DNA of 64,000 nucleotides from Escherichia phage FL15, in the sequence record PP400778. One strand, given 5' to 3'. A program made the translations under genes and the position numbers. This document shows positions 10,301 through 36,834 of the stretch, piece by piece. Under the pieces are notes generated by a model. The model searched no databases, had not been told where the DNA came from, and worked only from the letters and a program-made list of their open reading frames with translations. Position 1 is the first letter of the stretch, and every line of letters begins with the position of its first letter.

Positions 10301-11114
10301 CGTTGGTGGTACTGGAACAGCGCAAGTTGTTGATAGTGATGCTATCGCTTTCGGTAAAATCAATGATGGTGGAGTCGTTGAGCATTACGCCTTTGCTATG
10401 AAACACAATGGCGACGCGACAGCATATAGAGACTTTATTGCAGGTCGTAACCTGTATGCGAAACAAGGCGGTTTATACATTGTTGACCAGTCTAATCCGG
10501 CAATGACTCGTTCCTCAGATGGTATGCTGAATATCGGTCACGGTGGAAGTGTTAACATCAAGGCAGGTCATCAAACGTTAACTACAGAGATCGCCGGACA
10601 GAAATATCAGATCGTACACGCAGGAAACGCTGACGAAGTTCTTAACCGTCAGTTTGTTAAGAATGCTGGCGATACAATGGTCGGTAAGCTGACTATGGAT
10701 AATGCGCCTATTGTTTCTGTTAAGCATGAAGCTAGCGCGGAAACCGCTCCGGCAATCGGTAACATCGGTTTCTGGAATATGCGAGTTACTACCCAGAACA
10801 TCAAAGAAACTTATCCAGAGAAGAAAAACGGTACTCTGATGCAATGGGGTACTGACGCGGACGGGCTTACCCAGCTTTGGTCCCCTGATGGTACTCATAA
10901 ACATTATATCCGTTCCGGTACTGGTGGTCAATGGACCGCATGGGGTGAAATTTACACCAAACAGAACAAGCCTACCGCTCAGGAAATTGGGGCAGTGGTT
11001 GCCGAAGGTGGTTTGATGAACTCTATGACGGTTCGTGATTGGATCAAAGTTGGTAATGTTAAAATCATCGCCAATAATCTGACTCGTACCGTAGACTTTA
11101 TCTGGGAAGACTAA
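7374..11114 (+). CDS. 34: long tail fibre proximal subunit gp34
   Basis: 1246 aa; N-terminus and repeated ETRRGIARIATQ / PKKL motifs match T4 gp34; C-terminal NVKIIAN...VDFIWED. Confidence 0.95.
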   Translation: MADFSQHFKATFGFDAGNEKVVNVAYADKNTSTDAVNVEFFNYHNGITQYDTTRGYDQYGTTIYQNRPYYAKEDIAKPAGDFDPTKWQALRTDPRWDYVAATSGDTPLKSGDYIAADCQFANLTFSMPTNPVEGDTITVKDIGGKCGVNELSFLSTGHEFYHNGNVYNRKWYCTTPYAMNYFIFVRNRWHVYQTGTEPRGVYAQPAIDAIQMQNGDQVFRRSSLGNITLVLPKFANNGDMIQTTDLDGLTATNHVTVKVHEHAEEQSIGTSGLKEIIGKRSGHGVFIFDKTENLWRLWDGDQSVRLKPIINDTRLQPNSYVSVFGGRDVTLTLPTNVEPGDRIQVSMQYMHGNQTCRIITSEEDTKILMQKNMVQFPKRSEYPFNGTDTWTGVSELSFNAANDYVPYLEFSYSEGDDGKKYWLVAHAHPIVERVDPTRKDRVGVIALATQDETNKNHEDNPSDEVAVTPKVLANKTANETRRGIARIATQAETHQDTGSSFLDDVIVTPKKLNDCVATEARRGVMEIATQHETNEGLDDTRAITPKKLEERRASEDLAGIAEIVQVGGSAAARRGEAGTGIYNINDHAKIVTPQNINEVKATETSRGVGYLATDAEVQGATESTPQDALLITTRTLTKRTATESRTGIAEIATQEETNLGQSDNHIITPKKLHTRRATETLHGLAEIATQPEFDAGRDDARISTPLKIKTFFENAQRLKVDPTQGLNLTGDLWQGIMISGLDATEDTKGVAKVATTQLTDAGQDDTTIITPKKLQGKKATEGKEGIIRVGTQAETVAGALANVAISPKNFKYVVQTEDTWKATEARRGFLKVATQENCFVGDNLQGSTQELGNYQHDGIAVTPKGLNYALANFLPKMATAQNSLKLGNVEAAKWARRDIDQIIESNYTFNKKVNVKGDLECLKSGSFETLSVTKNSTDVPSNGHLVLGERGVDGHTGITLHGTTASEGMKNSWSIIVGGTGTAQVVDSDAIAFGKINDGGVVEHYAFAMKHNGDATAYRDFIAGRNLYAKQGGLYIVDQSNPAMTRSSDGMLNIGHGGSVNIKAGHQTLTTEIAGQKYQIVHAGNADEVLNRQFVKNAGDTMVGKLTMDNAPIVSVKHEASAETAPAIGNIGFWNMRVTTQNIKETYPEKKNGTLMQWGTDADGLTQLWSPDGTHKHYIRSGTGGQWTAWGEIYTKQNKPTAQEIGAVVAEGGLMNSMTVRDWIKVGNVKIIANNLTRTVDFIWED

Positions 11115-11119
11115 TTAAA

Positions 11120-11136
11120 GGGGGCGAAAGCCCCCC
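11120..11136 (+). terminator. GC-rich stem-loop after gene 34 (weak terminator or RNA stability element)
   Basis: GGGGGC-GAAA-GCCCCC hairpin; no clear U-run. Confidence 0.3.
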
Positions 11137-11148
11137 TATGGGGTTATT

Positions 11149-12288
11149 ATGACACAAGAGATAGAATTACGCAACACTGGAATTAAGTTTGCGCATTTCG
11201 ACGAAGACTCCGCGACATTTACAAGCATTTCAGAAAACAACTCTGTGATGTATAAGCTGGAAGTGCGCGGATCTAATGCGGATTCTACCAAACCAGCAAG
11301 AATTAGATTTAATGGAGTGGAGATCGTTGGCGCTGGCTATGAAAATGGCCTAAATTTTAAAGTTCTTACTCCAACTGGACAACTACACGAAGAAAAGGTA
11401 TTCTATGGTCGCGGTGCTGTTTTGGCAATGCGTGATTATCTTTCTTTGCTGAAAGGTGACTATATCATTGCGATGGTAACGCATGGAGAATTGTTTGCAG
11501 ACCCGATAAGTGATGTTGTATTTTCTAAGATGGGATCTGTATCATTCCCGAATCACATTTTGTTACAGCAAATGCCTCGTGTATCCTATGCAGCAATTTA
11601 TTCTACTAAAATGGGCAAAATTGTGTGCGAAGGGATGCAAGCAACGAACGGGGAAGGTCAAGATTCGTCTATACAGATCGAGAAAGTTTATGATACTATA
11701 GACGATCTTGCAATAACAGGAACACCACAACGATTTTTAGATTATCCGGTTGAATATGTTAGCGAAGATGCCGAACATTTCGAGCTAATACAATGGCATC
11801 ATGATGAGATCAGCGCACCACTTGAAGATTTTAACATAAAGGCAGGTGACAAACTATCAATATCCTTTGAATTGTTCCGTGATAGTGCCGCAGCCGCAGC
11901 CAACGTAACAGCGCGTTTCTATCACAACTACTTCACCGATGGACAATATAAAACTGGCGTTCGTTATAATGCCATCCAGAAAGATCAATGGGAAAAGTTT
12001 GAAGCCGTCTATACAGTACCGGAAGGAGTTGATAGTGTTACCACTGGTTGTATCAGATATCCAACCAACTCCAACGAAGGTGTTGTTAAGGTTAGAAACA
12101 TACTAATAACGCCGATTAGTGGAGTCGTCAAAACTACTGGTCCTACTTCCTTTGGTGTTAACGGTATTAGAACAACTCACATTCAGGATAACGGCAATTT
12201 CGATAACCCTGTTATGAGTCTTCTTAAATTACCTAGAGACAATAAACATATCACATCCAACAACTTTAAAGAGTTCGATGTTGATTAA
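11149..12288 (+). CDS. 35: long tail fibre hinge protein gp35
   Basis: 379 aa ORF between gp34 and gp36 on the late strand; size and position match T4 gp35 (372 aa). Confidence 0.8.
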   Translation: MTQEIELRNTGIKFAHFDEDSATFTSISENNSVMYKLEVRGSNADSTKPARIRFNGVEIVGAGYENGLNFKVLTPTGQLHEEKVFYGRGAVLAMRDYLSLLKGDYIIAMVTHGELFADPISDVVFSKMGSVSFPNHILLQQMPRVSYAAIYSTKMGKIVCEGMQATNGEGQDSSIQIEKVYDTIDDLAITGTPQRFLDYPVEYVSEDAEHFELIQWHHDEISAPLEDFNIKAGDKLSISFELFRDSAAAAANVTARFYHNYFTDGQYKTGVRYNAIQKDQWEKFEAVYTVPEGVDSVTTGCIRYPTNSNEGVVKVRNILITPISGVVKTTGPTSFGVNGIRTTHIQDNGNFDNPVMSLLKLPRDNKHITSNNFKEFDVD

Positions 12289-12299
12289 CATTTTTAACA

Positions 12300-12328
12300 A
12301 GCCGATCCTCGTGGTCGGCTTTATTTTT
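12300..12328 (+). terminator. intrinsic terminator after gene 35
   Basis: Hairpin AGCCGATCC-TCGT-GGTCGGCT followed by TTATTTTTTA; the same stem recurs at 23316 and 61868. Confidence 0.7.
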
Positions 12329-12450
12329 TATACAGTTGGTTAAAACATAACCAAAACGAAGAAAGATCTTTAGAATAATAGAAAATTTGTTTCGGTTAAA
12401 AAATAGTCAGTGCCTACGGCACGTCGCGAAGCGATATTTTGTTAACATTC

Positions 12451-12458
12451 TATAAATA
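12451..12458 (+). promoter_or_regulatory. T4-type late promoter core TATAAATA
   Basis: Exact TATAAATA about 34 nt upstream of the gene 36 start codon. Confidence 0.45.
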
Positions 12459-12491
12459 CTCGGAACTATAACTAATTTTTGAGGTTACTTT

Positions 12492-13982
12492 ATGGCAGAT
12501 TTGAAACATGGATCTACTGTAGGCGGATCTCCCATTTGGACGCAAGGAAACTTGACGATCCAACCAGCGGGCGATCAGCTTTTCTATAAAGGTCATAAAA
12601 TCTATACCGCTTTTGATAAACCTTCGGCTGCCGATTTTGATGCTGTTAGTGCATCTGAGGGTGGTACATTTCAGAAACTGGTCCATTTTGAGGAAGGTTT
12701 AAGCGTAGGTAGCGCATCCGGTGGAGAAACCAAAAAGAACGGGATCTTTAAAGGAAAGAGCGACGCTGCTAATTTTGACGGCGTAAGCTGGGGTTTGCAT
12801 TCATGGAAGTCAATCGGCTTTGTTAATGCCCGTGATGGCGTTATTATGGCGTATATTGACACCACAACGGGCGAATTTAAGTCTAAAGGGACTATCGAAG
12901 GGACAACCATTAAAGACACAGGTCAACGCGTCTATAGCCCTGTTAATAAACCAACGAATAATGATTTGGATTTAGTTTCCCGTCGCGGTGATACTCTCTC
13001 AGGAACGTATAATTTAAACACTGTCACTGTTAAACTATCGGTTGATTCGAAATTAATTGCAAGGGAACGTGATTTAATTAATTTTGATGCGACTAAGATC
13101 TATTATGGTAACGTTCTTGATACGTTGGTCTTCCGAAGTAAAGATGAGCCTACCATTTTTGTTAATGGCAAAGAAGGTCGTTTTTATCACACCAACAATA
13201 AACCGACTAAAGCCGATGTTGGACTAGGTAATGTCACCAATGATGCACAGGTTAAACGTGCTGGTGATATTATGGAAGGTAACTTGCAAGCTCCTAGAAT
13301 GTTGGCGACAAACGATCCTGCTGGTCCTAATGAATTGGTTCGTTTGAGCTACTTTGAGAAAAAATCAATGGTAGCAAATCCAACAATCATCGGAAACGTT
13401 GATTGGAACACTCTTATTAATCGCGGTATCTATCGTGTTGAAAATGCTGGGTCAGGTACTAATAAACCGTCTGATAGCTATTATAACGGCGTTTTGATGG
13501 TATATCGCCCAGAAGATGCGGTCGGTACTCGTCGAATTGTTCAGGTATACTATCCTGAATCTATTGATCATCCTATGTGCTGGCGTTCTTGTTCTAATGA
13601 ATCATGGACTGCATGGAACTATGTCGATCACCGTAAATTAGCCGATATTCGCTATGTTAACGTAACTGGCGATACCATGAGAGGTGCTTTGACAGTTCCC
13701 GCTGCAAACGGCGTTCGTACCGCAAAAGCTAACTATAATGGTGATAATTGCTACGCTGGACTTAATAGCTTAGATGGCACAGCAATGATTCATCGTGTTA
13801 GTGATATTAAAGCGCATGAGAAACTAGGCATCACACATGATTCTAAAATTATTTTCGTTAAATCACGCAACAATACTCAGGACACCGATACATTTGAATT
13901 ATACCACGAAGGGCATAAACCTACCCCTGCCGAAGTTGGCGCTGTTCCGCTTAATGCGGTAATTGATTTTGGTACTTTCTAA
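12492..13982 (+). CDS. 36: long tail fibre distal connector gp36 (enlarged, 496 aa)
   Basis: N-terminus MADLKHGSTVGGSPIWTQGN matches T4 gp36 (MADLKVGSTTGGSVIWHQGN); much longer than the 221-aa T4 protein. Confidence 0.8.
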   Translation: MADLKHGSTVGGSPIWTQGNLTIQPAGDQLFYKGHKIYTAFDKPSAADFDAVSASEGGTFQKLVHFEEGLSVGSASGGETKKNGIFKGKSDAANFDGVSWGLHSWKSIGFVNARDGVIMAYIDTTTGEFKSKGTIEGTTIKDTGQRVYSPVNKPTNNDLDLVSRRGDTLSGTYNLNTVTVKLSVDSKLIARERDLINFDATKIYYGNVLDTLVFRSKDEPTIFVNGKEGRFYHTNNKPTKADVGLGNVTNDAQVKRAGDIMEGNLQAPRMLATNDPAGPNELVRLSYFEKKSMVANPTIIGNVDWNTLINRGIYRVENAGSGTNKPSDSYYNGVLMVYRPEDAVGTRRIVQVYYPESIDHPMCWRSCSNESWTAWNYVDHRKLADIRYVNVTGDTMRGALTVPAANGVRTAKANYNGDNCYAGLNSLDGTAMIHRVSDIKAHEKLGITHDSKIIFVKSRNNTQDTDTFELYHEGHKPTPAEVGAVPLNAVIDFGTF

Positions 13983-13987
13983 TTCTA

Positions 13988-14010
13988 GCGGGGATTATCC
14001 CCGCTTTTCT
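13988..14010 (+). terminator. stem-loop / weak terminator after gene 36
   Basis: AGCGGGG-ATTAT-CCCCGCT hairpin followed by TTTT. Confidence 0.45.
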
Positions 14011-14049
14011 AAATAATATTATTCTAACAACCGTTAAGGATTTTATAAA

Positions 14050-16809
14050 ATGGCAGATTTACAGAGAATCCAATTTAAAAGAACAAGTACGGCAGGTCGC
14101 AAGCCGGATGCGAATATTCTAACTCCGGGTGAACTTGCTATTAACCTAGCGGATCGAAAACTATATACAAAAGATGACAGCAATAATGTAATTACTTTGG
14201 GACACTTTCGCGGTGAGTTGCCATCTGATGCAAATTTAGATAATTATGGACCTACTGGTAAATTTACTGGCGTTTGGTCTAAATCAAGTTCAACAAATGC
14301 GCAGCCAGCAAATAAATTCCCAGAAGCGAATGCTGTAGGTGTATTAGAAGTATTTGTGGCTGGTCAATTTGCTGGCAGTCAGCGTTATACTGTTAGATCT
14401 GGTAACGTTTATATCCGTTCTTTGTCTGCGAAATGGAATGGTGTAGATGGTCCATGGGGTCCGTGGCTCAATATTCAAAATGGCACACGTCCACTATCAA
14501 CTACACTAGACTTGAATACTTTAGGTGATGCTTCTCATTTTGGGTTATGGCGAAATAGTTCAAGTTCCATTGCATCATTTTCTCGAAATTACCCAGAAGA
14601 AGGTGGTCTCGCGCAAGGTCTTTTAGAAATTTATGAAGGTGGTAACTATTCTTGCACGCAACGTTATACTACCCGAATGGGTGTTGTATATGTTCGTTGT
14701 CTTGCAGGTGCATGGGATCCAGAAGCTCCGAATTGGGGACCGTGGCAACAAGTAGGTATGGTTACTCCCAGCACATTCTATGACGGGGATCTTAATAATT
14801 TTCGTTCTCCTGGCTTGTATAACATTTTAGGGACTGATGCCGTTATTAACCGTCCAGTTGCAGAAGGTGTTCCGGTTGAGATGACCGGATTGCTTGAGGT
14901 TAAACAGCGTGCTTCCGGTGGCGCTATTTTCCAACGTTTCACTACCGCAGGAACGGGTGCAACTACGCGATCTCGCGTGTTTGAACGTGCAATGACAAAT
15001 AATATCTGGGGAAATTGGTACGAAGTATATACGTCCTATTCTATGCCAATTACTTTGGGTATGGGTGGTGTTAAAACTCAATTAGCGGAGCTAGATTGGC
15101 AAACATTTGATTTTGTTCCTGGTAGTATGTTTAGCGTTCCTTTGAACAAAATAAAGAACATGCCAGCAAATATGAATTGGGGTACGATTGACGGAGACTT
15201 GGTTATGTTTTCTGTCGGTCCTAGCGAACACACTGGCACAGGACGTACTGTTCAGGTTTGGCGTGGTACTGTATCCCAGACAAACTACCGTTATTTTGTC
15301 GTTCGTGTGTTCGGTAATTCTGGAAATAGAACTTGCACAGTTCGCCGTGTTGTTCTTGAAGATGGATCACATACTTGGACTGCTCAACAAAACTTTAGGG
15401 GATTGTTGAATATCACTGCTGCTGTTAATCTTGGTGCTAATCAGAAAATTTCACTTGCTCCAGGAGCATATATTCAAGCCCCTGCTAGCGGTTCTGGTTC
15501 TAATACTTACGCGAATCAGAATACTACCATTGCACCATTATATCAGGCCATTGACGATTCAAATAAAAACCAGTTTGCGCCAATTGTTAAACAGAAAAAC
15601 ACTGTAACAAATATTACTATGGCTTCTGGTATGGATATTGCTAGTTCAGAATATCGTATCGTTGCTCAGGGTGATTTATCCGCTACTGGAACTACAGCCA
15701 CTGAATTAGCTACATGGCGTTTCTTGCCGTCTGGCCGATTCATGTCACAAAGCCGAGTTTATGCTGGCGCAGCATTCTTGAACACTGATGGTAACATTGC
15801 TGGTTCAATCTGGAAGAAATACAACGATGCAACCAATTTAGATGCTGCCTTGAATACTCGCCTAGGTAAAGGCGGTGATACGATGACAGGTCGGTTAACA
15901 ATCAATGCACCTAATGATTCTATCGTATTATCAACAACTGCTAGTAATTCTTTGCATATTCGCGGTGACATAGACGGGACTGGTAACTGGTATATTGGCA
16001 AGGGTGGTGCTGATAATGGATTAGCGTTCTATAGTTATGCTACTAATGCTGCTGTAAACATTACAAACGCGGGGGATATCGCTCTAAGTCCAAAAGGCAT
16101 CGAAATGACTCATGTCAATAACGTTCGATTCTATGTTCATGGTGAACGTTGGACTGCTAGCCAATCTGGAGGTTGGAACGACCAATGGGGATTAGAAGCT
16201 CCGATATTTGTTGACCACGGCTATGTTGGACCAGACAGTTATTATCCGATTATCAAAGGAAGAAGTTTAATCACCAATCAAGGATATACAACTGCCGTCG
16301 ATTTTGGTCTACGTCGTGTCCCTAACAATTGGGGGCAAGCAATTATTCGTGTTGGATCTGCGGAAAACTCGCCAGCGGCTGGTCATCCTCAAGCTGTATT
16401 CGAGTTCCATCATGATGGTACTTTCTATTCTCCAGGTAATGGTAACTTTAACGATGTGTATATTCGTTCCGATGGTCGTCTTAAGATTAATAAAAAAGAG
16501 CTAGAAAACGGAGCACTTGAAAAAGTATGTCGACTGAAAGTTTATATTTACGATAAAGTTAAGTCTATTAAAGACCGTAGTGTTATTAAACGTGAAGTTG
16601 GTATTATTGCTCAGGACCTTGAAAAGGAATTACCGGAAGCTGTATCTAAAGTTGAAGTTGATGGATCTGATGTTCTGACAATTTCTAACTCTGCAGTGAA
16701 TGCTCTTTTAATTAAGGCTATTCAGGAAATGAGTGAAGAAATTAAAGAATTGAAAACGCCTCTCTTTACTAAAATTGCTCGCAAAATTAGTAAATATTTT
16801 AAATTCTAA
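14050..16809 (+). CDS. 37: long tail fibre distal subunit gp37 with C-terminal intramolecular chaperone domain
   Basis: 919 aa; N-terminus MADLQRIQFKRTSTAGRKPDANILTPGELAINLADRKLYTKDDS matches gp37; C-terminal ~100 aa (GIIAQDLEKELPEAV...ISNSAVNALLIKAIQE) resembles S74-type intramolecular chaperone. Confidence 0.9.
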   Translation: MADLQRIQFKRTSTAGRKPDANILTPGELAINLADRKLYTKDDSNNVITLGHFRGELPSDANLDNYGPTGKFTGVWSKSSSTNAQPANKFPEANAVGVLEVFVAGQFAGSQRYTVRSGNVYIRSLSAKWNGVDGPWGPWLNIQNGTRPLSTTLDLNTLGDASHFGLWRNSSSSIASFSRNYPEEGGLAQGLLEIYEGGNYSCTQRYTTRMGVVYVRCLAGAWDPEAPNWGPWQQVGMVTPSTFYDGDLNNFRSPGLYNILGTDAVINRPVAEGVPVEMTGLLEVKQRASGGAIFQRFTTAGTGATTRSRVFERAMTNNIWGNWYEVYTSYSMPITLGMGGVKTQLAELDWQTFDFVPGSMFSVPLNKIKNMPANMNWGTIDGDLVMFSVGPSEHTGTGRTVQVWRGTVSQTNYRYFVVRVFGNSGNRTCTVRRVVLEDGSHTWTAQQNFRGLLNITAAVNLGANQKISLAPGAYIQAPASGSGSNTYANQNTTIAPLYQAIDDSNKNQFAPIVKQKNTVTNITMASGMDIASSEYRIVAQGDLSATGTTATELATWRFLPSGRFMSQSRVYAGAAFLNTDGNIAGSIWKKYNDATNLDAALNTRLGKGGDTMTGRLTINAPNDSIVLSTTASNSLHIRGDIDGTGNWYIGKGGADNGLAFYSYATNAAVNITNAGDIALSPKGIEMTHVNNVRFYVHGERWTASQSGGWNDQWGLEAPIFVDHGYVGPDSYYPIIKGRSLITNQGYTTAVDFGLRRVPNNWGQAIIRVGSAENSPAAGHPQAVFEFHHDGTFYSPGNGNFNDVYIRSDGRLKINKKELENGALEKVCRLKVYIYDKVKSIKDRSVIKREVGIIAQDLEKELPEAVSKVEVDGSDVLTISNSAVNALLIKAIQEMSEEIKELKTPLFTKIARKISKYFKF

Positions 16810-16844: not shown

Positions 16845-17627
16845 ATGGCAGTAGTTGGAGTTCCTGGCTGGATTGGAAGTTCAGCCGTAAATGAAACGGG
16901 TCAGCGCTGGATGAGTCAAGCGGCTGGTCAATTAAGATTGGGTGTTCCTTGCTGGATGAGTCAATTTTCAGGTCGCTCGCGAGAAATTATTCACACGCTT
17001 GGCGCAGACCATAACTTCAATGGTCAGTGGTTCCGTGATAGATGCTTTGAGGCAGGTAATGCACCTATAGTGTTTAATATTACCGGTGATTTAGTATCAT
17101 ATTCTAAAGATGTTCCTTTATTCTTCATGTACGGAGATACACCAAATGAATATGTTCAGTTGAATATACATGGCGTAACGATGTATGGTCGTGGCGGGAA
17201 TGGCGGTAGCAATGGTCCTGGATCAGCCGGGGGGCATTGTATTCAAAATGATATTGGTGGGAGACTAAGAATTAATAATGGTGGAGCTATTGCAGGTGGC
17301 GGTGGCGGTGGCGGTGGCGGGTATTATTCTCCTTTTTCACAAATGAGATTAACCTTTGGCGGTGGCGGTGGGCGTCCGTTTGGTGCGCCCGGCGGATCTA
17401 TTGATATGCAATCAGGCGCAACTGCTGGTACTCTTTATGCGCCCGGATCGGGGTCCGTGAACGGTGTCTATAATGGCGGAAGCGGTGGTGAGGTAGGTGC
17501 TGCGGGAGGTAGATGTAATATTCGTGGTCAAGGATCTGAATATAATGGCGGCGATTCTGGATATGCTGTTATAGGGTCTTCTCCAACGTGGCAAAATCGC
17601 GGAGCTATTTACGGACCGGCTGTTTAG
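16845..17627 (+). CDS. 38: T2-type receptor-binding adhesin gp38 (glycine-rich motifs)
   Basis: 260 aa; N-terminus [15 protein letters not shown] and multiple poly-Gly islands separating variable segments are the T2/T6-type gp38 architecture. Confidence 0.85.
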
Positions 17628-17963: not shown

Positions 17964-18620
17964 ATGCAAGTTTCTGAAAAAGGGAAAGACTTTGCTATCT
18001 CAAATGTCCTGCGCGCTATTTTCACAACTAAAAGCACGGAGTTGCTCGTACTTCGTGTTTTTGCTGCCGTCGTGTTGTCCATATTGGCATTTGTCGTTTA
18101 TAGTAAAAACGAGTTATTTGCGCTTTATAAAGAGACTCGTTATGAGACTTATGCTCACATTCTCCAGGTAGAGAAAGACCGCAATTTTGATAATGCAGCA
18201 CAGGAGCAGTTACAGATAGTTCATGTGTCGGCTGATGCCGATTTTTCTGCTGTTTTTAGTTTTCGTCCGAAAAACCTAAACTATTTTGTTGATTTGGTGG
18301 CATATGAAGGAAAGCTACCGCATACAATCGATGAAAAAAATTTAGGCGGATTCCCTATCAATAAAACGAGTGAAGAATATCGTAGGCATCTTTTAGGTAA
18401 ATCATATTTTACCGATAAAGATTTCCAGTATATTCCATCAAGAGAAAAGAAATTAGAGAGTATCGATATAGGGTTTATGTATTCTTGTCCTATATTCAAT
18501 CTCGATAATGTCTATTCTGGTAGTATCGCCATTTCATGGAAGAATAAACCGGATATTGACATTGAGAATTTAGATACTCTTTGCAATCAATCTGCCAGAA
18601 TCCTCGGAAGGATTAGATAA
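17964..18620 (+). CDS. t: holin t
   Basis: 218 aa; matches T4 holin (LEQLQIVH.S.DADFSAV.SFRPKNLNYFVD..AYEGKLP, MYSCP.FNLDN.Y.G.I, ARILGR). Confidence 0.95.
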   Translation: MQVSEKGKDFAISNVLRAIFTTKSTELLVLRVFAAVVLSILAFVVYSKNELFALYKETRYETYAHILQVEKDRNFDNAAQEQLQIVHVSADADFSAVFSFRPKNLNYFVDLVAYEGKLPHTIDEKNLGGFPINKTSEEYRRHLLGKSYFTDKDFQYIPSREKKLESIDIGFMYSCPIFNLDNVYSGSIAISWKNKPDIDIENLDTLCNQSARILGRIR

Positions 18621-18626
18621 CTTAAA

Positions 18627-18659
18627 GGGGAAGCCTTTCGGCCTCCCCTTCTTTTTATT
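18627..18659. terminator. intrinsic terminator at the convergence of the late (+) and early (-) blocks
   Basis: Hairpin GGGGAAGCC-TTTC-GGCCTCCCC followed by TTCTTTTTATT on the plus strand. Confidence 0.65.
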
Positions 18660-18903
18660 GGGGCATAGAAGCCCCTGAATCACATTTTGACGCTGTATGA
18701 TGAAAACAGGTAGCGTACCAGTCATCTGCTTGTTTGTCTTCGTCAGAAAACGCGTAATTTCGTTGTGTGCCGTTTTCTACTTTGACCAGTGCAATAGCTG
18801 TTTCTGGAAGATCAATCAGTCGGACAAAATCACCATCTTCCCACTCTACACGAGCAATATCATATCCCATCTCAAAGTATACAATCGCTTGTTCTAATTT
18901 CAT
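18655..18903 (-). CDS. small protein, possibly DUF2829-like
   Basis: 82 aa; start ATG overlaps upstream stop (ATGA coupling); pattern A..Y...G..IAR.EW...................DDW resembles DUF2829 as I remember it. Confidence 0.5.
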   Translation of the reverse strand: MKLEQAIVYFEMGYDIARVEWEDGDFVRLIDLPETAIALVKVENGTQRNYAFSDEDKQADDWYATCFHHTASKCDSGASMPQ

Positions 18904-19223
18904 TCTGGAAACTTCCCGTAAACATTCTCTGCCAGCTTACGTGCATCTTTTACAATATCTTTCATGTAATGACTATAATTTTTAGCTAGATCAATGATGC
19001 AATCAACAAAGAAGTAATAGCGTCGCAGTGCTACCAGCTCAACATCTTCAAGATGACCATTTTCTCCAATCGCTGAAATATGTTTAAATTCCTTTCGGAT
19101 CGCGTCCATCGCTACATTAACTTCTTTTATAATATCTTTCGTATTATATGCACCTCGACTAATCAAAATTTTGGTTAGGTCTTCTGCTTTTTCGTGAAAG
19201 TTGTCAATTTCAAACTCGATCAT
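18900..19223 (-). CDS. hypothetical protein (paralog of 19338-19670)
   Basis: 107-aa ORF; C-terminal ...KDARKLAENVYGKF aligns with ...DEARIMTENIFGKF of the neighbour. Confidence 0.55.
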   Translation of the reverse strand: MIEFEIDNFHEKAEDLTKILISRGAYNTKDIIKEVNVAMDAIRKEFKHISAIGENGHLEDVELVALRRYYFFVDCIIDLAKNYSHYMKDIVKDARKLAENVYGKFPE

Positions 19224-19337
19224 AATCACCTCTCATAATTTCACTCTGTTGTGTCAACATTTTTTCGTGGTTTGCTAATTCTATACCTTGTAATAGCATA
19301 ACCAGTGCAATTTTCAATGATTCATCATCTTTCATAA

Positions 19338-19670
19338 TCAAAATTTACCGAAAATATTCTCTGTCATAATTCTTGCTTCGTCGATTATTTTCGTCATGTT
19401 CATGGTGTAGTTATGATCATTTAGTGCCTTAATGACAACGAGCAAGGAATCTAAAAACACTCGATACCGGGTATATTCTACGCTATTTGTGAATACCGAT
19501 GTTTTCTCTACTTTATCGATCAGATAGCCTAAAGCCGATAGCGCCTCGTTTACTTCCCTTGTTACTTTATCGGCGCTAAACAACACCGGATAAAGACGCG
19601 GTGTGATTAACCGCGCTGCCTCTTTCAATTCGGTAGCTTTCCATGATTCATATTTGTCATAGTTAAACAT
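19338..19670 (-). CDS. hypothetical protein (paralog of 18900-19223)
   Basis: 110-aa ORF with AAGGAG SD; shares C-terminal half with the neighbouring gene. Confidence 0.55.
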   Translation of the reverse strand: MFNYDKYESWKATELKEAARLITPRLYPVLFSADKVTREVNEALSALGYLIDKVEKTSVFTNSVEYTRYRVFLDSLLVVIKALNDHNYTMNMTKIIDEARIMTENIFGKF

Positions 19671-19682
19671 TGTATAATCTCC

Positions 19683-20015
19683 TTACAGATGAAAACCTGT
19701 TACGATCACCGCATCGATCATACCGCTAGGAATAAACGGTTCGCCCTCTTTTATTTCAACTTTGAATTGATGCCATTTCGCTAATACTTCTTCCGGTACA
19801 CCCAGCGATTCGGCGTCTGCTTTAGTTTCATCCATAATCCAACTAGGCTGCATGAGAGCATAGTTTACATAGTCCATTTCTGGGGTCATGTCATCAATGT
19901 TAATATATTTGCAGTTGACGCGTTTCAGAATTTCAAATTCTTTATTGTCAACCTGTACCATGTATAATTCAGTAGTTTCTGGAATCAGTTCCCACACAAT
20001 CAGTACATTTTTCAT
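19683..20015 (-). CDS. hypothetical protein
   Basis: 110-aa ORF, tightly packed in the early-gene run. Confidence 0.5.
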   Translation of the reverse strand: MKNVLIVWELIPETTELYMVQVDNKEFEILKRVNCKYINIDDMTPEMDYVNYALMQPSWIMDETKADAESLGVPEEVLAKWHQFKVEIKEGEPFIPSGMIDAVIVTGFHL

Positions 20016-20023
20016 AGTTCACC

Positions 20024-20392
20024 TCACTTAACAAAGATTTTCTTTAATGCTTTCAGGATCGTTGCTTCCGGTGCTTCTTCCGGTGGAGGAAGCAATTCTA
20101 CCACTTCCTCTTCCAACTCGATATAGTCTACCAGATATTCTACATAGAATGCAAGTGCTTCCATGAAATTAGATGCTACATCCGATTCACCACAAGCGCC
20201 TACATGCATTGTATAAACATCACTGCGATCAAGTTTGTGGATGCTTCCCAGATAGTTTCGGTTATACCAGACTTCCCACACTTTCAGCTTTCCGGTTTTG
20301 GTTGCTGTTTTATAATCGGTTTCGTAATGATGCAATTGACGTTGCAAATCATTGATAATAACACATTTTTCGTAATTGTTTTGAATTTCCAT
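20024..20392 (-). CDS. hypothetical protein
   Basis: 122-aa ORF with GAGGA SD. Confidence 0.5.
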   Translation of the reverse strand: MEIQNNYEKCVIINDLQRQLHHYETDYKTATKTGKLKVWEVWYNRNYLGSIHKLDRSDVYTMHVGACGESDVASNFMEALAFYVEYLVDYIELEEEVVELLPPPEEAPEATILKALKKIFVK

Positions 20393-20402
20393 GATGTAAT
20401 CC

Positions 20403-20594
20403 TCACTTATCGTTAAGAAGTTCTAAAACTTTCTGTCGTACTTTGTCAATATTAGTTGATTCAAAAACTGTACGGTATCCCCAGCTTTGACCGTATGATC
20501 GCGAGCAATCCCCATATCCCCATTGTTCAACCTGATAGTATTCAAGGAATGGGTGCTGCCGAACTATGATACCATCGCGATTAAAAATTACCAT
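20403..20594 (-). CDS. hypothetical small protein
   Basis: 63-aa ORF with GAGGA SD. Confidence 0.45.
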   Translation of the reverse strand: MVIFNRDGIIVRQHPFLEYYQVEQWGYGDCSRSYGQSWGYRTVFESTNIDKVRQKVLELLNDK

Positions 20595-20617
20595 AATATA
20601 ATCCTCACGTCAACAAC

Positions 20618-20905
20618 TTATTTTCGGTTGTGGTCACGATATGTTTTAAAATATCCCTCGTACCACGGTAAAATATCTGGATTTTTACCACTATACAGAC
20701 CTTTAACCATCATGTCAATAAGGCCATCTGGTGTTTGATAGTTTCCAGCTTTTATAAGCTCTCTGATTAAAATCTCTCTGTATATGTCTTTCGGATCTTC
20801 GTAATCAACTTGTATTGTGGTTGTTGTCTCGCTTAATTTGGTTTCTGGAGTATCTTGCATCGCCTTCCACCAATCTTTTGTAATCTTCATGTTATTGAAT
20901 TGCAT
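20618..20905 (-). CDS. hypothetical protein
   Basis: 95-aa ORF. Confidence 0.45.
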   Translation of the reverse strand: MQFNNMKITKDWWKAMQDTPETKLSETTTTIQVDYEDPKDIYREILIRELIKAGNYQTPDGLIDMMVKGLYSGKNPDILPWYEGYFKTYRDHNRK

Positions 20906-20916
20906 AATTTAACCTC

Positions 20917-21675
20917 TTACTTGCAAACGTATTGATCTACATCAATTGCTCCACCGAATGTAGGATGACGTTTTTCAAATCGAATAGTTCCGTCGTTTGG
21001 TTCGAAAACGGAGTATTCATATAGATCTTTCTTGCCAACATTCTTATAAAACCCGCCTTTAGTCATAACGGTTTCTTGTACGTTTGCTTTGTGTACGTTG
21101 TATTCATCAATGTATACAAAATCAACCATCTTCCCATTTTTAATGGTTACTTTAAGATCCCCTGGCTGGTTTCCATATTTTGCATACAGTGGAGCCTCTT
21201 TAATTTTTGTGGAAATTCCATCTTTCATACTCCACTCATAACGAACGGTGCATTGATAGGTAAAAGTTTCGACCTTCGGTTCTTCTACCACTTTTGCTTC
21301 CTGTTTCGGTTGTTCTTCTTCAACCTTCGCAGAAGTCTCTGAATCGCTTTCTGACGCGGTTTCTTCTTTAGGTAATACATTCATCAAGTTTTGGATTTGA
21401 GCGTTATATACAGCCTCCAGTGGCTGAATCTGCCCGATATTGATCATTGTATCACGAACAGTTTTATTCCAGTTTCGTTGCTCTTGTTTCAGAGACGGAT
21501 CAATCTTAACAGCCTTAACATACACCTCATGAAGTTTAGAGTCCAGTGCGGAGATAGACTCATTAGCACAAATAAACTTCTCTGATTTGGTAGTAGCTTT
21601 AGCGCAATCAAAGGACGCAGCGTTAGCACCGAAAGCAGTAGCAGAAAGAACGATAGCAGCGATAATGTTTTTCAT
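20917..21675 (-). CDS. secreted protein with N-terminal LprI-like (DUF1311) domain
   Basis: 252 aa; signal peptide MKNIIAAIVLSATAFGANA; then C-x10-E-x2-IC...LDSKLHEVY matching the DUF1311 Cys/Leu/Tyr pattern; Glu/Lys-rich linker; C-terminal domain unknown. Confidence 0.6.
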   Translation of the reverse strand: MKNIIAAIVLSATAFGANAASFDCAKATTKSEKFICANESISALDSKLHEVYVKAVKIDPSLKQEQRNWNKTVRDTMINIGQIQPLEAVYNAQIQNLMNVLPKEETASESDSETSAKVEEEQPKQEAKVVEEPKVETFTYQCTVRYEWSMKDGISTKIKEAPLYAKYGNQPGDLKVTIKNGKMVDFVYIDEYNVHKANVQETVMTKGGFYKNVGKKDLYEYSVFEPNDGTIRFEKRHPTFGGAIDVDQYVCK

Positions 21676-21699
21676 AATATATTCCTCAGTGTTTTGTCT

Positions 21700-21740
21700 T
21701 GATGGGAGTATCTTACTACTCCCTTAATCCGGTGTCAACT
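21700..21740 (-). promoter_or_regulatory. early promoter cassette with palindrome (PeSL-like)
   Basis: Minus strand GTTGAC (21734-21739), then palindrome GGGAGTA-N6-TACTCCC (21704-21723) enclosing a TAAGAT -10, upstream of ATG 21675. Confidence 0.5.
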
Positions 21741-21749
21741 ACTTTTAAA

Positions 21750-22010
21750 TTATTTTCGCCATTCACCGGAAACAATAAAGTTTGTAAAGTGATCGTGGTC
21801 CATGATAACGTCATTAAGTACCATATGCGGATATGCTTTAGTGTAATCACGTTTACGATCAGTCATCCAGCCAACGAAAGTTGGTGCAAAGTACGGTACA
21901 CCGTCAGACGATGCCATATTAAACCCTTTATCAACCATAAATGCAGCCGCCCTAAGATTTTTAATTGAAGTAGTGCGACTAATTTCAAAAACTTTATCGG
22001 TAAAATTCAT
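21750..22010 (-). CDS. hypothetical protein
   Basis: ORF; start at MNFTDK (ATG 22010) directly after the upstream stop. Confidence 0.5.
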   Translation of the reverse strand: MNFTDKVFEISRTTSIKNLRAAAFMVDKGFNMASSDGVPYFAPTFVGWMTDRKRDYTKAYPHMVLNDVIMDHDHFTNFIVSGEWRK

Positions 22011-22011
22011 T

Positions 22012-22221
22012 TTAAGCCCCCGCTCGTGCATTAATACGCATTTTCTGTATAGCCATGATCTGGTTTACTGCTTCTTCTTTACGTTCTTGCGTGATAATGT
22101 GACCAGATTCCGCAAACTCTCCAGCAACTTCTTCTACGATCTCGCGAACTTGAGAACGTCCAAAGATGCGGTTTCCTTCGTAGCTCATAAACTCTGTTAC
22201 TACTTGCTCGATAGATTTCAT
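22012..22221 (-). CDS. hypothetical small protein
   Basis: 69-aa ORF preceded by conserved leader AAAGGAGAATCAC. Confidence 0.5.
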   Translation of the reverse strand: MKSIEQVVTEFMSYEGNRIFGRSQVREIVEEVAGEFAESGHIITQERKEEAVNQIMAIQKMRINARAGA

Positions 22222-22244
22222 GTGATTCTCCTTTCGTTTGGTAT

Positions 22245-22280
22245 GGGAGTATCTTACTACTCCCTTATCTTTACGTCAAC
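22245..22280 (-). promoter_or_regulatory. early promoter cassette with palindrome (PeSL-like)
   Basis: GTTGAC (22275-22280) plus GGGAGTA-N6-TACTCCC palindrome (22245-22264), near-identical to the 21700 copy. Confidence 0.5.
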
Positions 22281-22286
22281 TAGTTT

Positions 22287-22529
22287 TTAGAAATTTTTCG
22301 CTTCTTCTTCGGTCATCATAACCGCGCATTCGTGCATAACTTTGAAAACCGGATCAATCATGTCGAATGCTTCGCGGGACAGTTTACGAGAAGCGATTTT
22401 GATTGCTTCTACGTCTTCTACTACAGGAACAAAAACAGTTTTCAGTTCGTCGAGGACGGCAGCTTCTTTTTCATTCAGGAAGATCCCAGCGTCGTACAGT
22501 GCAACTTCGATAACATTAACTTTAACCAT
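22287..22529 (-). CDS. hypothetical small protein
   Basis: 80-aa ORF with GGAGG SD. Confidence 0.5.
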   Translation of the reverse strand: MVKVNVIEVALYDAGIFLNEKEAAVLDELKTVFVPVVEDVEAIKIASRKLSREAFDMIDPVFKVMHECAVMMTEEEAKNF

Positions 22530-22559
22530 TTTATTTCCTCCAGTTCGTTTCGGTATGGG

Positions 22560-22592
22560 AGTATAATACTACCGATGACCTTTGGCGTCAAC
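22560..22592 (-). promoter_or_regulatory. early promoter cassette (PeSL-like, degenerate palindrome)
   Basis: GTTGAC (22587-22592), -10 TATTAT/TATACT inside GGGAGTATAATACTACC, conserved leader CCCATACCGAAAC. Confidence 0.45.
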
Positions 22593-22792
22593 TAGTTTTT
22601 TGTTATTTTCGTGAAATTTTTCGTCGCCTCATGTGCTTTTCGCTGGGCTTCTTGTTGTGCTTGCTGGCGTGCTGCCTCTTGCGATGTCATAACAGACGCA
22701 TTTGCAGCAGTTACAGCCGCGACCATCGCTGCGGTATTAGCATTTACCGTACATGCACTAGCCAGCAAAGCAATCGCAATCATTTTCTTCAT
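22592..22792 (-). CDS. small secreted protein (signal peptide)
   Basis: 66 aa; MKKMIAIALLASACTVNA signal-like N-terminus then Ala/Gln-rich mature part; AAAGGGGAA SD. Confidence 0.5.
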   Translation of the reverse strand: MKKMIAIALLASACTVNANTAAMVAAVTAANASVMTSQEAARQQAQQEAQRKAHEATKNFTKITKN

Positions 22793-22959
22793 AGTTTCCC
22801 CTTTAGGTTATCTTCGACCTTCACCCATTCCGCGTATTCTTGCGCGGCTACTTTCGGATTTAAGCCGTCTTCGTACATTGCTTCAAGTAATTCTTCGTCG
22901 GTGGGCTTATACCCTAGATAAGCCTCCACCTGATTTTTCCAAATTTTATACCAGTTCAT
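22789..22959 (-). CDS. hypothetical small protein
   Basis: ORF; start at MNWYKIWK abuts the upstream stop. Confidence 0.45.
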   Translation of the reverse strand: MNWYKIWKNQVEAYLGYKPTDEELLEAMYEDGLNPKVAAQEYAEWVKVEDNLKGKL

Positions 22960-22963
22960 ATTA

Positions 22964-23236
22964 TCACCAATCAAGAGCGCGTGTCTCTGCGTCTTCCCAT
23001 GCTTGATCCATAACAGCCTTGAAAACATATTCTAGAGTATCATCTTTAGAGAATCCGAAGACCTTAGACGGAATATCTTCAATTGCTACTCCCGCAACTT
23101 CTGCATTACGCGCTTGGCAATAATGCAACTCTAAGTTATCGAGATAGCGACCGCCTAATTTCTCCATATCATCCCAGCATTTCCAGTAACCTACTTTATC
23201 TGCAATTGCCAACACTTTGCTGTTTTCGTTGTTCAT
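22964..23236 (-). CDS. hypothetical protein
   Basis: ORF starting MNNENSKVLAIADKV with leader AAAGGAGAATCAAAG. Confidence 0.5.
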   Translation of the reverse strand: MNNENSKVLAIADKVGYWKCWDDMEKLGGRYLDNLELHYCQARNAEVAGVAIEDIPSKVFGFSKDDTLEYVFKAVMDQAWEDAETRALDW

Positions 23237-23267
23237 CTTTGATTCTCCTTTTGTTTGGTATGGGTGT

Positions 23268-23296
23268 ATTATGCAATGCTGGATTATGGAAGTCAA
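23268..23296 (-). promoter_or_regulatory. sigma70-type early promoter
   Basis: Minus strand TTGACT (23291-23296), 17-nt spacer, CATAAT; leader ACCCATACCAAAC...GGAGAATCA conserved with other cassettes. Confidence 0.45.
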
Positions 23297-23307
23297 ACAA
23301 CTTTTCA

Positions 23308-23337
23308 AATAAAAAAGCCGACCACAAGGATCGGCTT
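23308..23337 (-). terminator. intrinsic terminator
   Basis: Minus strand AGCCGATCC-TTGT-GGTCGGCT + TTTTTTATTT; same stem as the terminators at 12300 and 61868. Confidence 0.7.
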
Positions 23338-23346
23338 AATAGTCAG

Positions 23347-23742
23347 TTACTTACTAAATTTCTTTTTGGCTTCGTCTACTGCATGAGATGCCAGCACCGC
23401 TGCCGCATGTGCACTTTTATCTGTGTTGCATAGAACACCCAGATAAACATCACGCCAAAGTTTAATCATCTCGTAGATCATATCAATATCATTTTCTTGT
23501 TTGTTGGCGATGCTATTCGTCGTTATCTGGTAAGGCAACGGCTTGATCTGTACTGGTTCCGCCATCGGGCTAATCGGTTTCGGATCAGTCATAATAGGTG
23601 CTGTTGTTGGTGGTGTTTTCCATACACCATTATTCCACGGTTTAATCGTTGTATCGTAAAGTTTATAAGGATTTTTGTCTGGATTAACCATCCAGGCATG
23701 ATGAGTACCCAAACCATTTGAAGTAATGCGTCGTTCAGTCAT
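23347..23742 (-). CDS. hypothetical Pro-rich protein
   Basis: 131-aa ORF followed by a strong terminator. Confidence 0.5.
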   Translation of the reverse strand: MTERRITSNGLGTHHAWMVNPDKNPYKLYDTTIKPWNNGVWKTPPTTAPIMTDPKPISPMAEPVQIKPLPYQITTNSIANKQENDIDMIYEMIKLWRDVYLGVLCNTDKSAHAAAVLASHAVDEAKKKFSK

Positions 23743-23944
23743 ACTTTCCCTCCAAAAATTCTTTCATCAAATAGTCTATCGTTGCTCTGTGTTCTGGTGT
23801 GTTTGTTATCTCTGCTAACTTGTTCAGAGATTCAATAGTGATCCGGTTGGCTTCTTCCATAGTCTCAACGACCATCGGTACAATCTTTTTATTGTTGTAC
23901 ACGAAAGCCACATAACCGCCTTCTGGATATTCTTTCATAATCAA
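23735..23944 (-). CDS. hypothetical small protein
   Basis: 69-aa ORF immediately downstream of gene 52. Confidence 0.5.
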   Translation of the reverse strand: MIMKEYPEGGYVAFVYNNKKIVPMVVETMEEANRITIESLNKLAEITNTPEHRATIDYLMKEFLEGKYD

Positions 23945-25287
23945 CCCTTCTTAAGTTCTTTAAGATCTTTCTTATATTCCTTCATTGCGGTCGTCTTTGT
24001 CCAATACTCATATTCACTATGATGTTTATCGGCATCTTTGACCAGTCGATCATACTCTTCTTGAGTAACGCTATACAATGGCATAGAAACTAGCTTATCG
24101 GCGTATGGACGCAGTTTTTCATGTCCATTGATGGATTGCATTACCTCGGCCTTTTTCTTTCCCTGTAGCTCGATTTCGCCCTTAATTACAAGGTCGATAA
24201 ATTCAGCTTTAGCCATTGCATAATTGTATGCTTCCAGTGTTTCCGCTTGCATCAATTCAATGCGTTTATCGACATACCCTAATCGGATTTCGACGAATCG
24301 ACGGATCAGATCGCTCGCTTTCTCGAATACTTCAACTAAACCACGTTCATTAACCACTACGATATTCTGGGCTACTAACTGCGTTAGTTTAAAATCCTTC
24401 ATGATTTGCTCATGTCGAGCGGATTCATCTTCGCTTTTGAAATAATCGCGTTTCAGTGTTACTTCAAATCTGAATCCGTCCTTAGAGCAACGGTCATTAT
24501 ACGATACAATCAGATCTTTTTCTTCCAGTGCATCAAGTACCGCTACATATTCTTCACGGTCGAACTTATAAGGAACTTCTGATATTGTCAGCTTAGTCTT
24601 GCCGTTTAGTTCATATGTACCCTCAAGAATCACACCATCGCGATCATCTCGCGGGATAACTTTACCCGTGAATTTCGGGAATTGAACACTAGGTTCTTCA
24701 TCCAGTTTTCCGGCAAGTGCTAGCTCTGTGCATTCAATGAGGCTTTCCAGTGAATGCGGTAAAATGTCAGTTTTATACCCTGTAGCAATACCACTAATAC
24801 CATTAGCCAATACCATTGGCACAACTGGCAAGTAGAACGCTGGCGGGATGTGTTCCAGATCTTCGTGCTTGGGTGCGCAATTCATATCTTTATAGATTTT
24901 AAAGAAGTTTTCATGCACGCGAGCAAAGATATAACGTGCCGCACCTGCTTTCTGGACTAAACGTGATCCGAAGTTACCTTGACCGTCAAGCAGTGGAGTA
25001 TTATTGCTCCATGTATTCGCCATAAGTGATCCGGCTTCTACGGCATTAGTTTCCCCGTGGTGATAACCCAACTCGGCAACACCAGATCCAATATCTGCCA
25101 TCTTACGGAATTTCTTACGGTCGCCTTTACTCTTTTGCAAAGCACATTCCATAACAAAGCGTTGCACTGGTTTAAGCCCATCTACTAATTGAGGAATCCC
25201 GCGTTCCTCGGCAGAATAGATCGCATATTCCTTAGCTTCATTATGTACAATGCTTTCAAGGCTGCGGTAAGTAACTGATTTATTCAT
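23941..25287 (-). CDS. 52: DNA topoisomerase II medium subunit gp52
   Basis: Matches T4 gp52 (NEA..YA.Y..E.R.IP...DG.KPVQRFV, LGYHHGE, LLDGQGNFGSR, RYIFARV, PPAFYLP, TGY.T.ILPHS); start at 25287 or 25302. Confidence 0.9.
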   Translation of the reverse strand: MNKSVTYRSLESIVHNEAKEYAIYSAEERGIPQLVDGLKPVQRFVMECALQKSKGDRKKFRKMADIGSGVAELGYHHGETNAVEAGSLMANTWSNNTPLLDGQGNFGSRLVQKAGAARYIFARVHENFFKIYKDMNCAPKHEDLEHIPPAFYLPVVPMVLANGISGIATGYKTDILPHSLESLIECTELALAGKLDEEPSVQFPKFTGKVIPRDDRDGVILEGTYELNGKTKLTISEVPYKFDREEYVAVLDALEEKDLIVSYNDRCSKDGFRFEVTLKRDYFKSEDESARHEQIMKDFKLTQLVAQNIVVVNERGLVEVFEKASDLIRRFVEIRLGYVDKRIELMQAETLEAYNYAMAKAEFIDLVIKGEIELQGKKKAEVMQSINGHEKLRPYADKLVSMPLYSVTQEEYDRLVKDADKHHSEYEYWTKTTAMKEYKKDLKELKKG

Positions 25288-25294
25288 CTTCACC

Positions 25295-25657
25295 TCATAC
25301 ACGCTTACAAATCACATTCTTTACTTTATCAGATTTATCAGCCCAATCCAATAGCCATTTTAACGGAAGGATTGACACAATAAACGGGGCAGCAATCAAA
25401 GCAAACATGATACACCTGATAATCAGGAAAACGCAAGTGACAAAACTAGCGATAGTGATCCCGACAAAACAAAATACCATAGAAAACAGAGTAATGATAT
25501 AGAAAGGCCAGAATACCCACTCCCGCATCTTAACGCCTTTGTATTCTCTGAATTGCTTAAAATCTACAAACAACTCTCGGATAGACGCGTACAGGACAGA
25601 AAAATCATCTTTCATTGCTCTGAATGAGCAATCTTCTATTTTAGAATGACCTAGCAT
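25295..25657 (-). CDS. hypothetical membrane protein (two predicted TM helices)
   Basis: 120 aa; two long hydrophobic stretches (WVFWPFYIITLFSMVFCFVGITIASFV, FLIIRCIMFALIAAPFIVSILP). Confidence 0.5.
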   Translation of the reverse strand: MLGHSKIEDCSFRAMKDDFSVLYASIRELFVDFKQFREYKGVKMREWVFWPFYIITLFSMVFCFVGITIASFVTCVFLIIRCIMFALIAAPFIVSILPLKWLLDWADKSDKVKNVICKRV

Positions 25658-30123: not shown

Positions 30124-30155
30124 TTTGATTCTCCTAAGTGGTATCTCGTTTCGAT

Positions 30156-30191
30156 GGGGACATTATGATATATCCCCGATCCAGTGTCAAC
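30156..30191 (-). promoter_or_regulatory. early promoter cassette with palindrome (PeSL-like)
   Basis: Minus strand TTGACA (30185-30190), 17-nt spacer, CATAAT; palindrome GGGGATATATCATAATGTCCCC encloses the -10. Confidence 0.5.
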
Positions 30192-36773: not shown

Positions 36774-36834
36774 AATTGATTCTCCTTAGTTGGTATGGGT
36801 GTATTATTGTCTATCTGGTTTGTGCTGTCAACAC

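Follow-up and report, generated by a model that had tools for sequence, protein, structure and literature searches.

A variable block of small genes and promoter cassettes between holin t and gene 52 of Escherichia phage FL15

What occupies the interval between the holin gene t and the topoisomerase gene 52 in T4-like phages that lack the regulators T4 encodes there? In the T4 record, asiA, asiA.1, arn, arn.1-4, motA and motA.1 lie between t and 52, and an earlier model reading of the letters alone (the sequence-only reading) was right to name asiA, arn and motA as its contents. We analyzed the corresponding locus in a 64,000-nucleotide (nt) stretch of Escherichia phage FL15 (PP400778; hereafter the window), where 17 non-overlapping minus-strand open reading frames (ORFs) of 41-252 amino acids (aa) are tightly packed between the two flanking genes. 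The stretch is very probably the variable accessory (hyperplastic) region already described at this position in the genus Krischvirus, transcribed early from sigma-70 promoters, shuffled through elements called PeSLs, and without MotA middle transcription. As a type of region it is ordinary and already known.

The identity of the locus is clear from its relatives. The surrounding 5.35 kb match 63 phage records, all of them RB49-like coliphages of the genus Krischvirus, 51 at 95-99% identity, and the best matches are FL37 (98.8%) and kaaroe (98.4%). The locus is collinear with FL37, kaaroe and RB49 at 97-99% nt identity, and the window is collinear with RB49 from ~136.5 kb via the record end to 36.6 kb. 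The hyperplastic regions of RB49 and phi1 (PMC2839356; Comeau et al. 2014, PMC4122927) are from the same genus and include the same locus (RB49p255-p268). It is bounded by holin t (17964-18620, plus strand; Pfam Phage_holin_T, E-value (E) 8.5e-61) and by gene 52 (23941-25302, minus strand; T4 gp52 match, E 5e-146). The small genes had been placed downstream of the holin; they instead read from the gene 52 side towards it, and a GC-rich hairpin at 18625-18650 (-16.8 kcal/mol, z-score -3.55) separates the convergent holin gene and the last ORF of the run. This hairpin is annotated as a terminator in phage TB34 and is likely a bidirectional terminator.

Four intergenic cassettes carry the assignment. 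Four copies of the motif TTGAC-N19-A-NN-ATACNCCCAT lie in the region, all of them intergenic and minus-strand, and two more lie elsewhere in the window, against 0.09 expected by chance; the earlier mention of multiple promoter cassettes is thereby borne out. Common to the four are an AT-rich tract, TTGAC(A/G/T), a 17-nt spacer, a -10 hexamer (TAAGAT, TATTAT or CATAAT) and an ATAC(T/A)CCCAT(A/C) block. In the first (23237-23346), a terminator hairpin with a T-run (23315-23337; -12.7 kcal/mol, z -2.9) precedes a -35 box TTGACT (23296-23291) and a -10 box CATAAT (23273-23268), followed by a Shine-Dalgarno sequence and the start of a 90-aa ORF. The -35 box of the second (22530-22591), TTGACG, overlaps the upstream stop codon and is followed by a 17-nt spacer, TATTAT and ACTCCCATACC. 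The third (22222-22286) combines TTGACG with a TAAGAT that sits within the stem-loop GGGAGTA-GTAAGA-TACTCCC (-11.9 kcal/mol, z -3.7), and the fourth (21676-21749) combines TTGACA with a TAAGAT inside a 25-nt stem-loop block that is 100% identical to that of the third (z -3.0). Hairpins thus reach z-scores of -2.9 or lower in three of the four cassettes; two overlap the -10 box and one, the hairpin with the T-run, lies upstream of the -35 box.

Judged by their sequence, these cassettes are the published PeSL elements of the RB49 and phi1 hyperplastic regions, which likewise consist of an AT-rich tract, consensus -35 and -10 boxes, a 17-nt spacer and a stem-loop over the -10 box or upstream of the -35 box, followed by a Shine-Dalgarno sequence and an ORFan. 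Arbiol et al. (2010) counted ~50 PeSLs per genome in RB49 and phi1, demonstrated promoter and terminator activity for some PeSLs, others than these four, and proposed them as recombination sites for gene shuffling (PMC2839356). If PeSLs act as short homologous swap sites, related phages should differ exactly at the cassettes. Indels between related genomes do fall at the cassettes here, as in RB49 and phi1. A 93-aa ORF (21752-22018) replaces an unrelated 51-aa ORF of RB49 and TB34, with breakpoints at 21751/22019, and a 500-bp block (22301-22801) with an 80-aa and a 66-aa ORF is an insertion relative to the same two phages, with breakpoints at 22300/22802; both the replacement and the insertion are bounded by cassettes. 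Of the 63 Krischvirus records, 31 carry the two-gene block. The locus appears to illustrate the PeSL gene-shuffling model, and this isolate differs from the RB49 RefSeq record in combining the 93-aa ORF with the 80-aa/66-aa cassette, both absent there; otherwise nothing essential differs.

The promoters point to early expression. The T4-type late-promoter motif TATAAATA is absent from the region, which disposes of a late-promoter explanation and makes early sigma-70 transcription the best inference; consensus sigma-70 promoters on the coding strand also support early over late transcription. Within the 64-kb window, exact TATAAATA motifs occur only at two plus-strand sites among the tail-fibre genes, 7140-7147 and 12451-12458 (2 against 5.7 expected by chance). 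The best sigma-70 match of the region, TTGACA-17-TATAGT (11/12), lies at 20718-20690 on the minus strand, inside a 95-aa ORF rather than between genes; from this internal site it might drive early transcription of the genes downstream, from the 63-aa to the 82-aa ORF. The two further PeSL-type motif copies in the window, also on the minus strand, are at 30154-30190 and 36795-36831, in the rIIA-39 and dexA-dda parts of the genome.

Several observations weigh against this assignment. One of the four cassettes (22530-22591) has a weak stem-loop (z -1.1). A generic promoter scan shows no enrichment relative to shuffled sequences (14 found, 16.5 expected), enrichment being confined to the specific cassette motif. 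The early timing of the locus is something we infer from its promoters, and profile scans provide no functional lead for 15 of the 17 ORFs; the less favourable comparisons of the 82-aa protein described below belong on the same side. Nonetheless, the description of the stretch as an accessory early-gene block is supported, with early timing as the probable rather than the observed part of it.

Which functions, then, does the block encode? The sequence-only reading had remarked that host-takeover and anti-defence functions are common in such regions. What survives of this is one gene of a known anti-defence family, at the very margin of the 18900-23742 interval that had been delimited; a host-takeover function could be assigned to none of the ORFs. 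The gene in question, an 82-aa ORF (18655-18903, minus strand; equivalent to RB49p255), is the last of the run and overlaps the 18900 start coordinate by four bases. Its product passes the gathering cut-off of PF11195 (Tad2-like, DUF2829) with 28.9 bits against 25, over model positions 1-71 of 73, and close homologs are already annotated with PF11195. It has few homologs; four were recovered from both large protein collections. The AlphaFold2 model, at a predicted local distance difference test (pLDDT) score of 73.6, has the helix and five-strand topology described for Tad2, an N-terminal helix and an antiparallel sheet. When three solved Tad2 sequences are aligned with it by MAFFT, A6, G13, R18, W21, D56, D61 and W62 are invariant, and three of the six ligand contacts of SPO1 Tad2 are kept (W25 as W21, S76 as S53 and D79 as D56). 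We conclude that the 82-aa product has the Tad2 fold in minimal form and is a reasonable sponge candidate.

Compared with the Tad2 sponges SPO1 gp34.65, HgmTad2/AcrIIA7 and ModTad2, the core comprises ~67 residues rather than ~85-100, because the beta2-beta3 insert is missing, and an extra disordered tail of 15 residues is present. EWED stands here in place of GWNG, W73 of SPO1 Tad2 corresponds to Y50, and two ligand contacts are changed to Glu (N26 to E22, T78 to E55). The last two substitutions count against the Tad2 assignment, as do a Foldseek search of the PDB that missed Tad2, negative PDB sequence and profile searches, and a weak hhalign comparison with the solved Tad2 sequences (probability 2%). 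Separately, phmmer matched the 82-aa protein to four large multi-repeat proteins (P0006-P0009, E 1e-9 to 6e-4). These matches were judged to be spurious summed hits because all four align via several short repeated stretches; in Pfam, P0006 and P0007 have eukaryote-type fibronectin-III repeats, P0009 has an immunoglobulin-type domain and P0008 matches nothing.

Relatives of Tad2 sequester gcADPR, His-ADPR, N7-cADPR and cCMP/cUMP, and DUF2829 proteins that have been tested act as sponges for varied ligands (bioRxiv 10.1101/2023.05.01.538930, 10.1101/2025.08.24.671296). For the 82-aa protein, we rate a sponge function as close to an even chance. The strongest competing explanation is that it shares the fold only and has another role, such as the anti-CRISPR activity first proposed for AcrIIA7 or one unrelated to defence. 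We regard this as a serious contender, if one that falls somewhat short of probable: the record of the tested family members argues against it, as do the conserved equivalents of W25, S76 and D79, the C-terminal A-x-D-W motif and the location of the gene in an early accessory block.

The second ORF with a recognizable domain encodes a 252-aa secreted two-domain protein (20917-21675, minus strand). Its N-terminus, MKNIIAAIVLSATAFGANA/ASF, reads as a classical signal peptide, and residues 24-76 score above the Pfam cut-off for LprI/DUF1311 (PF07007); the score, a helical domain with a conserved Cys pair and predicted export all agree with this family. The AlphaFold2 model comprises the helical domain (24-98), a disordered acidic linker (104-131) and a confident nine-strand C-terminal domain (135-251; pLDDT ~88) that we read as a probable eight-stranded beta-barrel. 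Cys142 lies in its first strand and Cys251 in its last, so placed that a disulfide may close the barrel. Across 20 homologs, the first ~105 residues are 97-100% identical and the barrel differs greatly, its conserved residues being only the two Cys and a few Gly/Asp; two alleles of the protein are found within Krischvirus.

Of 5426 complete E. coli genomes, 26 have a chromosomal "LprI family" gene that shares 94-96% identity with the first 380-408 nt of the phage gene; the copy in E. coli strain H2 (L005, 9001-9771) is found next to hicAB, where a prophage ends. Phage and E. coli proteins have unrelated C-terminal domains, which implies that the exchange was recent and involved part of the gene only. 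T4-like phages of Klebsiella and Aeromonas also possess genes for secreted LprI-domain proteins, though more distant ones. We infer that the 252-aa protein is an exported binding protein under diversifying pressure.

Analogy may hint at what the barrel binds. The M. tuberculosis protein LprI joins an LprI domain to an MliC domain, whereas the barrel of the 252-aa protein has no Pfam match to MliC (PF09864) at E<=1. Unlike the periplasmic MliC/PliC/ACP lysozyme inhibitors, it lacks the conserved inhibitor loop motif and is hypervariable between homologs, and PDB sequence and profile searches with the protein were negative. The LprI domain itself is without proven inhibitor activity (PMC7933661). 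We hypothesize that the protein may block the cell-wall hydrolases of competitors, a role like that of T4 Spackle, to which it has no sequence similarity. A broader and rather unlikely extension would make it a member of a polymorphic periplasmic inhibitor family common to lytic T4-like phages and E. coli prophages, in which a constant export/DUF1311 module carries interchangeable disulfide-closed barrels against different incoming hydrolases (tail lysozymes of competing phages, muramidases of type VI secretion systems) and confers superinfection exclusion analogous to that by Spackle.

Six-frame ORFs from the window and from RB49 1-50 kb were searched by phmmer --max with Spackle as well as with the proteins of the T4 t-to-denB interval; no Spackle homolog was found in these 77 kb. 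In RB49, the gene 61-gene 41 interval (10023-14091), which is the site of sp (Spackle) and dmd in T4, has p017, p018, 61.1, dc1 and dc2 instead.

The position of the block, equal to that of the T4 asiA-motA interval, raises a different explanation for its small genes. Small helical ORFs, such as a pair of paralogs at the asiA position, might stand in for AsiA or MotA, either as functional analogues or as very distant homologues, so that the block would be a module for takeover of the sigma-70 RNA polymerase rather than a set of dispensable genes. The paralogs, at ~110 aa, are near the 90 aa of AsiA, the phage must still shut off early transcription, and other T4-like phages have retained AsiA without MotA (PMC1524935).

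The locus also resembles the T4 t-to-52 interval in its flanking genes, in its orientation convergent with t, in its class of small early genes and in the presence of a small predicted periplasmic protein (motA.1 in T4); it differs in that no gene of the T4 set has a detectable homolog here. In the phmmer --max comparison, only gp52 matched, and for AsiA, MotA and Arn nothing better than E 0.04 was found; within the window, the best values were E 3.6 for AsiA and E 0.24 for MotA, the latter on a signal peptide, and the best for the anti-restriction protein Arn was E 1.4. The Pfam models of the three families match none of the 17 ORFs at E<=1. An hhalign comparison of the paralog alignment with T4 AsiA returned a probability of 0.6%, and a PDB profile search with the paralogs returned only noise and no AsiA. 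By comparison, AsiA and MotA are readily picked up by tblastn in other T4-like genomes, over 1100 in number, at identities as low as 29-34%.

The failure of the sequence-only reading to recognise AsiA, Arn or MotA here is therefore upheld, and it repeats what is known. RB49 is without a motA ortholog, detectable MotA or middle-promoter consensus, and AsiA is listed only for other phages (Nolan et al. 2006, PMC1524935). That RB49 lacks motA was recognised in 2002-2006 and is already published, as is, by implication, the lack of asiA. RB49 also has other RNA-polymerase modifiers elsewhere (Srd, ModB, RpbA). Together, these data make a takeover module at this locus very unlikely.

The weakest alternative, that a substantial share of these short ORFs are not genes and the region is mostly regulatory or non-coding, appeals to their length (41-131 aa), to the two ORFs without a PHROG family and to the lack of known functions for most, and it is barely tenable against a single-strand coding density of 93%, GAGG/GGAG-type Shine-Dalgarno sequences before nearly every ORF, full-length PHROG matches for 15 of the 17 (E 1e-26 to 1e-156, all labelled unknown function), 97-100% amino-acid identity in ~60 genomes, and the choice of the same ORFs, all as "hypothetical", by the independent annotators of kaaroe, TB34 and RB49. 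GC skew is negative throughout the block. The sequence-only reading had counted about 18 small genes of 50-130 aa, plus the 252-aa protein, within 18900-23742. The dense run and the 252-aa protein hold; the count was slightly high, with 15 of the 17 ORFs inside these limits and two ORFs, of 82 aa (18655-18903) and 67 aa (23735-23938), extending beyond them, and the lower size limit is 41 rather than 50 aa.

Profile searches with every ORF returned nothing housekeeping in Pfam, NCBIfam or PADLOC, and the 15 ORFs other than the 82-aa and 252-aa genes had no match above noise in these collections. In the direction of transcription, the run opens directly after gene 52 with the 67-aa ORF (RB49p268 equivalent; phrog_15105, unknown function, E 3e-45), followed by a basic 131-aa ORF with a pI of 9.0 (23347-23742; RB49p267 equivalent; phrog_15644, E 3e-92), likewise without a match in Pfam, NCBIfam or PADLOC. 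Beyond the first cassette come the acidic 90-aa ORF (22964-23236; RB49p266 equivalent; phrog_7287) and a 56-aa ORF (22789-22959; RB49p265 equivalent; phrog_8655).

The variable two-gene cassette, absent from the RB49 RefSeq record, consists of a 66-aa secreted or lipoprotein-like ORF (22592-22792) and, as its second gene, the 80-aa ORF (22287-22529), neither with a PHROG match. The 66-aa N-terminus, MKKMIAIALLASACTVNA/NT, reads as a signal peptide, which a lipobox (LASAC) also fits, so that both predicted signal-peptide proteins of the sequence-only reading stand. Two 18-nt segments, one covering the holin gene end and its terminator (18615-18632) and the other in the ribosome-binding region of the 66-aa ORF, where this cassette borders its surroundings (22796-22813), form an inverted repeat with 94% complementarity, which may have arisen by chance or be the scar of a recombination event. 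Next are a 69-aa ORF (22012-22221; RB49p264 equivalent, 93% nt identity; phrog_14966) and the 93-aa ORF in its full extent (21750-22031, or 86 aa from a second ATG at 22010; phrog_19692), at the site of the unrelated 51-aa ORF of RB49 and TB34.

Past the 252-aa gene lie the 95-aa ORF that holds the near-consensus sigma-70 promoter (20618-20905; phrog_15915), a 63-aa ORF (20403-20594; phrog_6957), a 122-aa ORF (20024-20392; RB49p259 equivalent; phrog_1594) and an acidic 110-aa ORF (19683-20015; phrog_4658). By tblastn, the 122-aa ORF is found in 58 Krischvirus records at >=97% and in one distant Citrobacter phage, and is essentially confined to Krischvirus. A RefSeq note likening RB49 p259 to a T4 12.8-kDa asiA-motA protein was not reproduced, with no BLASTP match to arn.2 or arn.3 and no T4 match by tblastn. 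The paralog pair was correctly recognised: the 110-aa paralog B (19338-19670; E 1.6e-43) and the 107-aa paralog A (18900-19223; E 7.9e-57) both belong to phrog_9457 and match each other by BLASTP at E 7e-8, with 37% identity in the C-terminal 43 aa. Between them is a 41-aa ORF (19210-19335; RB49p256.1 equivalent; phrog_17009, E 1e-31). An anti-defence role for these 15 ORFs is a plausible generalisation rather than a finding, and literature searches combining Krischvirus or RB49 with anti-defence returned nothing.

On the far side of the holin gene, the flank contains the distal long-tail-fibre gene (14050-16809) and, after gene 37, a Gly-rich 260-aa ORF (16845-17627, plus strand) followed by a 79-aa ORF. 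By its Gly runs, the 260-aa ORF seems to resemble a T2-type gp38 adhesin. The RB49 RefSeq record has a separate gp38-like gene elsewhere (RB49p079, 45367-46143).

We propose the following operation for the block. Host sigma-70 RNA polymerase would transcribe it leftwards, along the minus strand, immediately after infection, starting at a series of strong early promoters of which four are the PeSL cassettes. Their stem-loops would attenuate read-through from upstream, and the hairpin beside the holin gene would end the unit. The same PeSLs would double as short homologous sequences for swapping genes in and out. The 17 small, probably dispensable genes would take the place of the T4 asiA-arn-motA set in a lineage without MotA-dependent middle transcription. 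Among their products, the 82-aa Tad2-fold protein would probably sequester a nucleotide immune signal of Thoeris- or Pycsar-type defence, and the 252-aa protein would be exported to the periplasm, where its variable beta-barrel would probably bind and block a cell-wall hydrolase or another incoming periplasmic factor.

As a region, the locus adds little, its position, variability and promoter cassettes having been described for RB49 and phi1 in 2010. Its individual genes offer more. The remaining 15 ORFs form a compact, naturally promoter-equipped set for anti-defence and toxicity screening. The 82-aa protein represents a minimal Tad2 fold in a coliphage genus that phage therapy collections draw on; should it prove active, the host range on E. 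coli with Thoeris or Pycsar would be affected, and the protein would be the smallest working Tad2 scaffold. In the 252-aa protein, the constant N-terminal and variable C-terminal halves, exchanged at 95% nt identity between virulent phages and prophages, are a signature of an ongoing periplasmic arms race.

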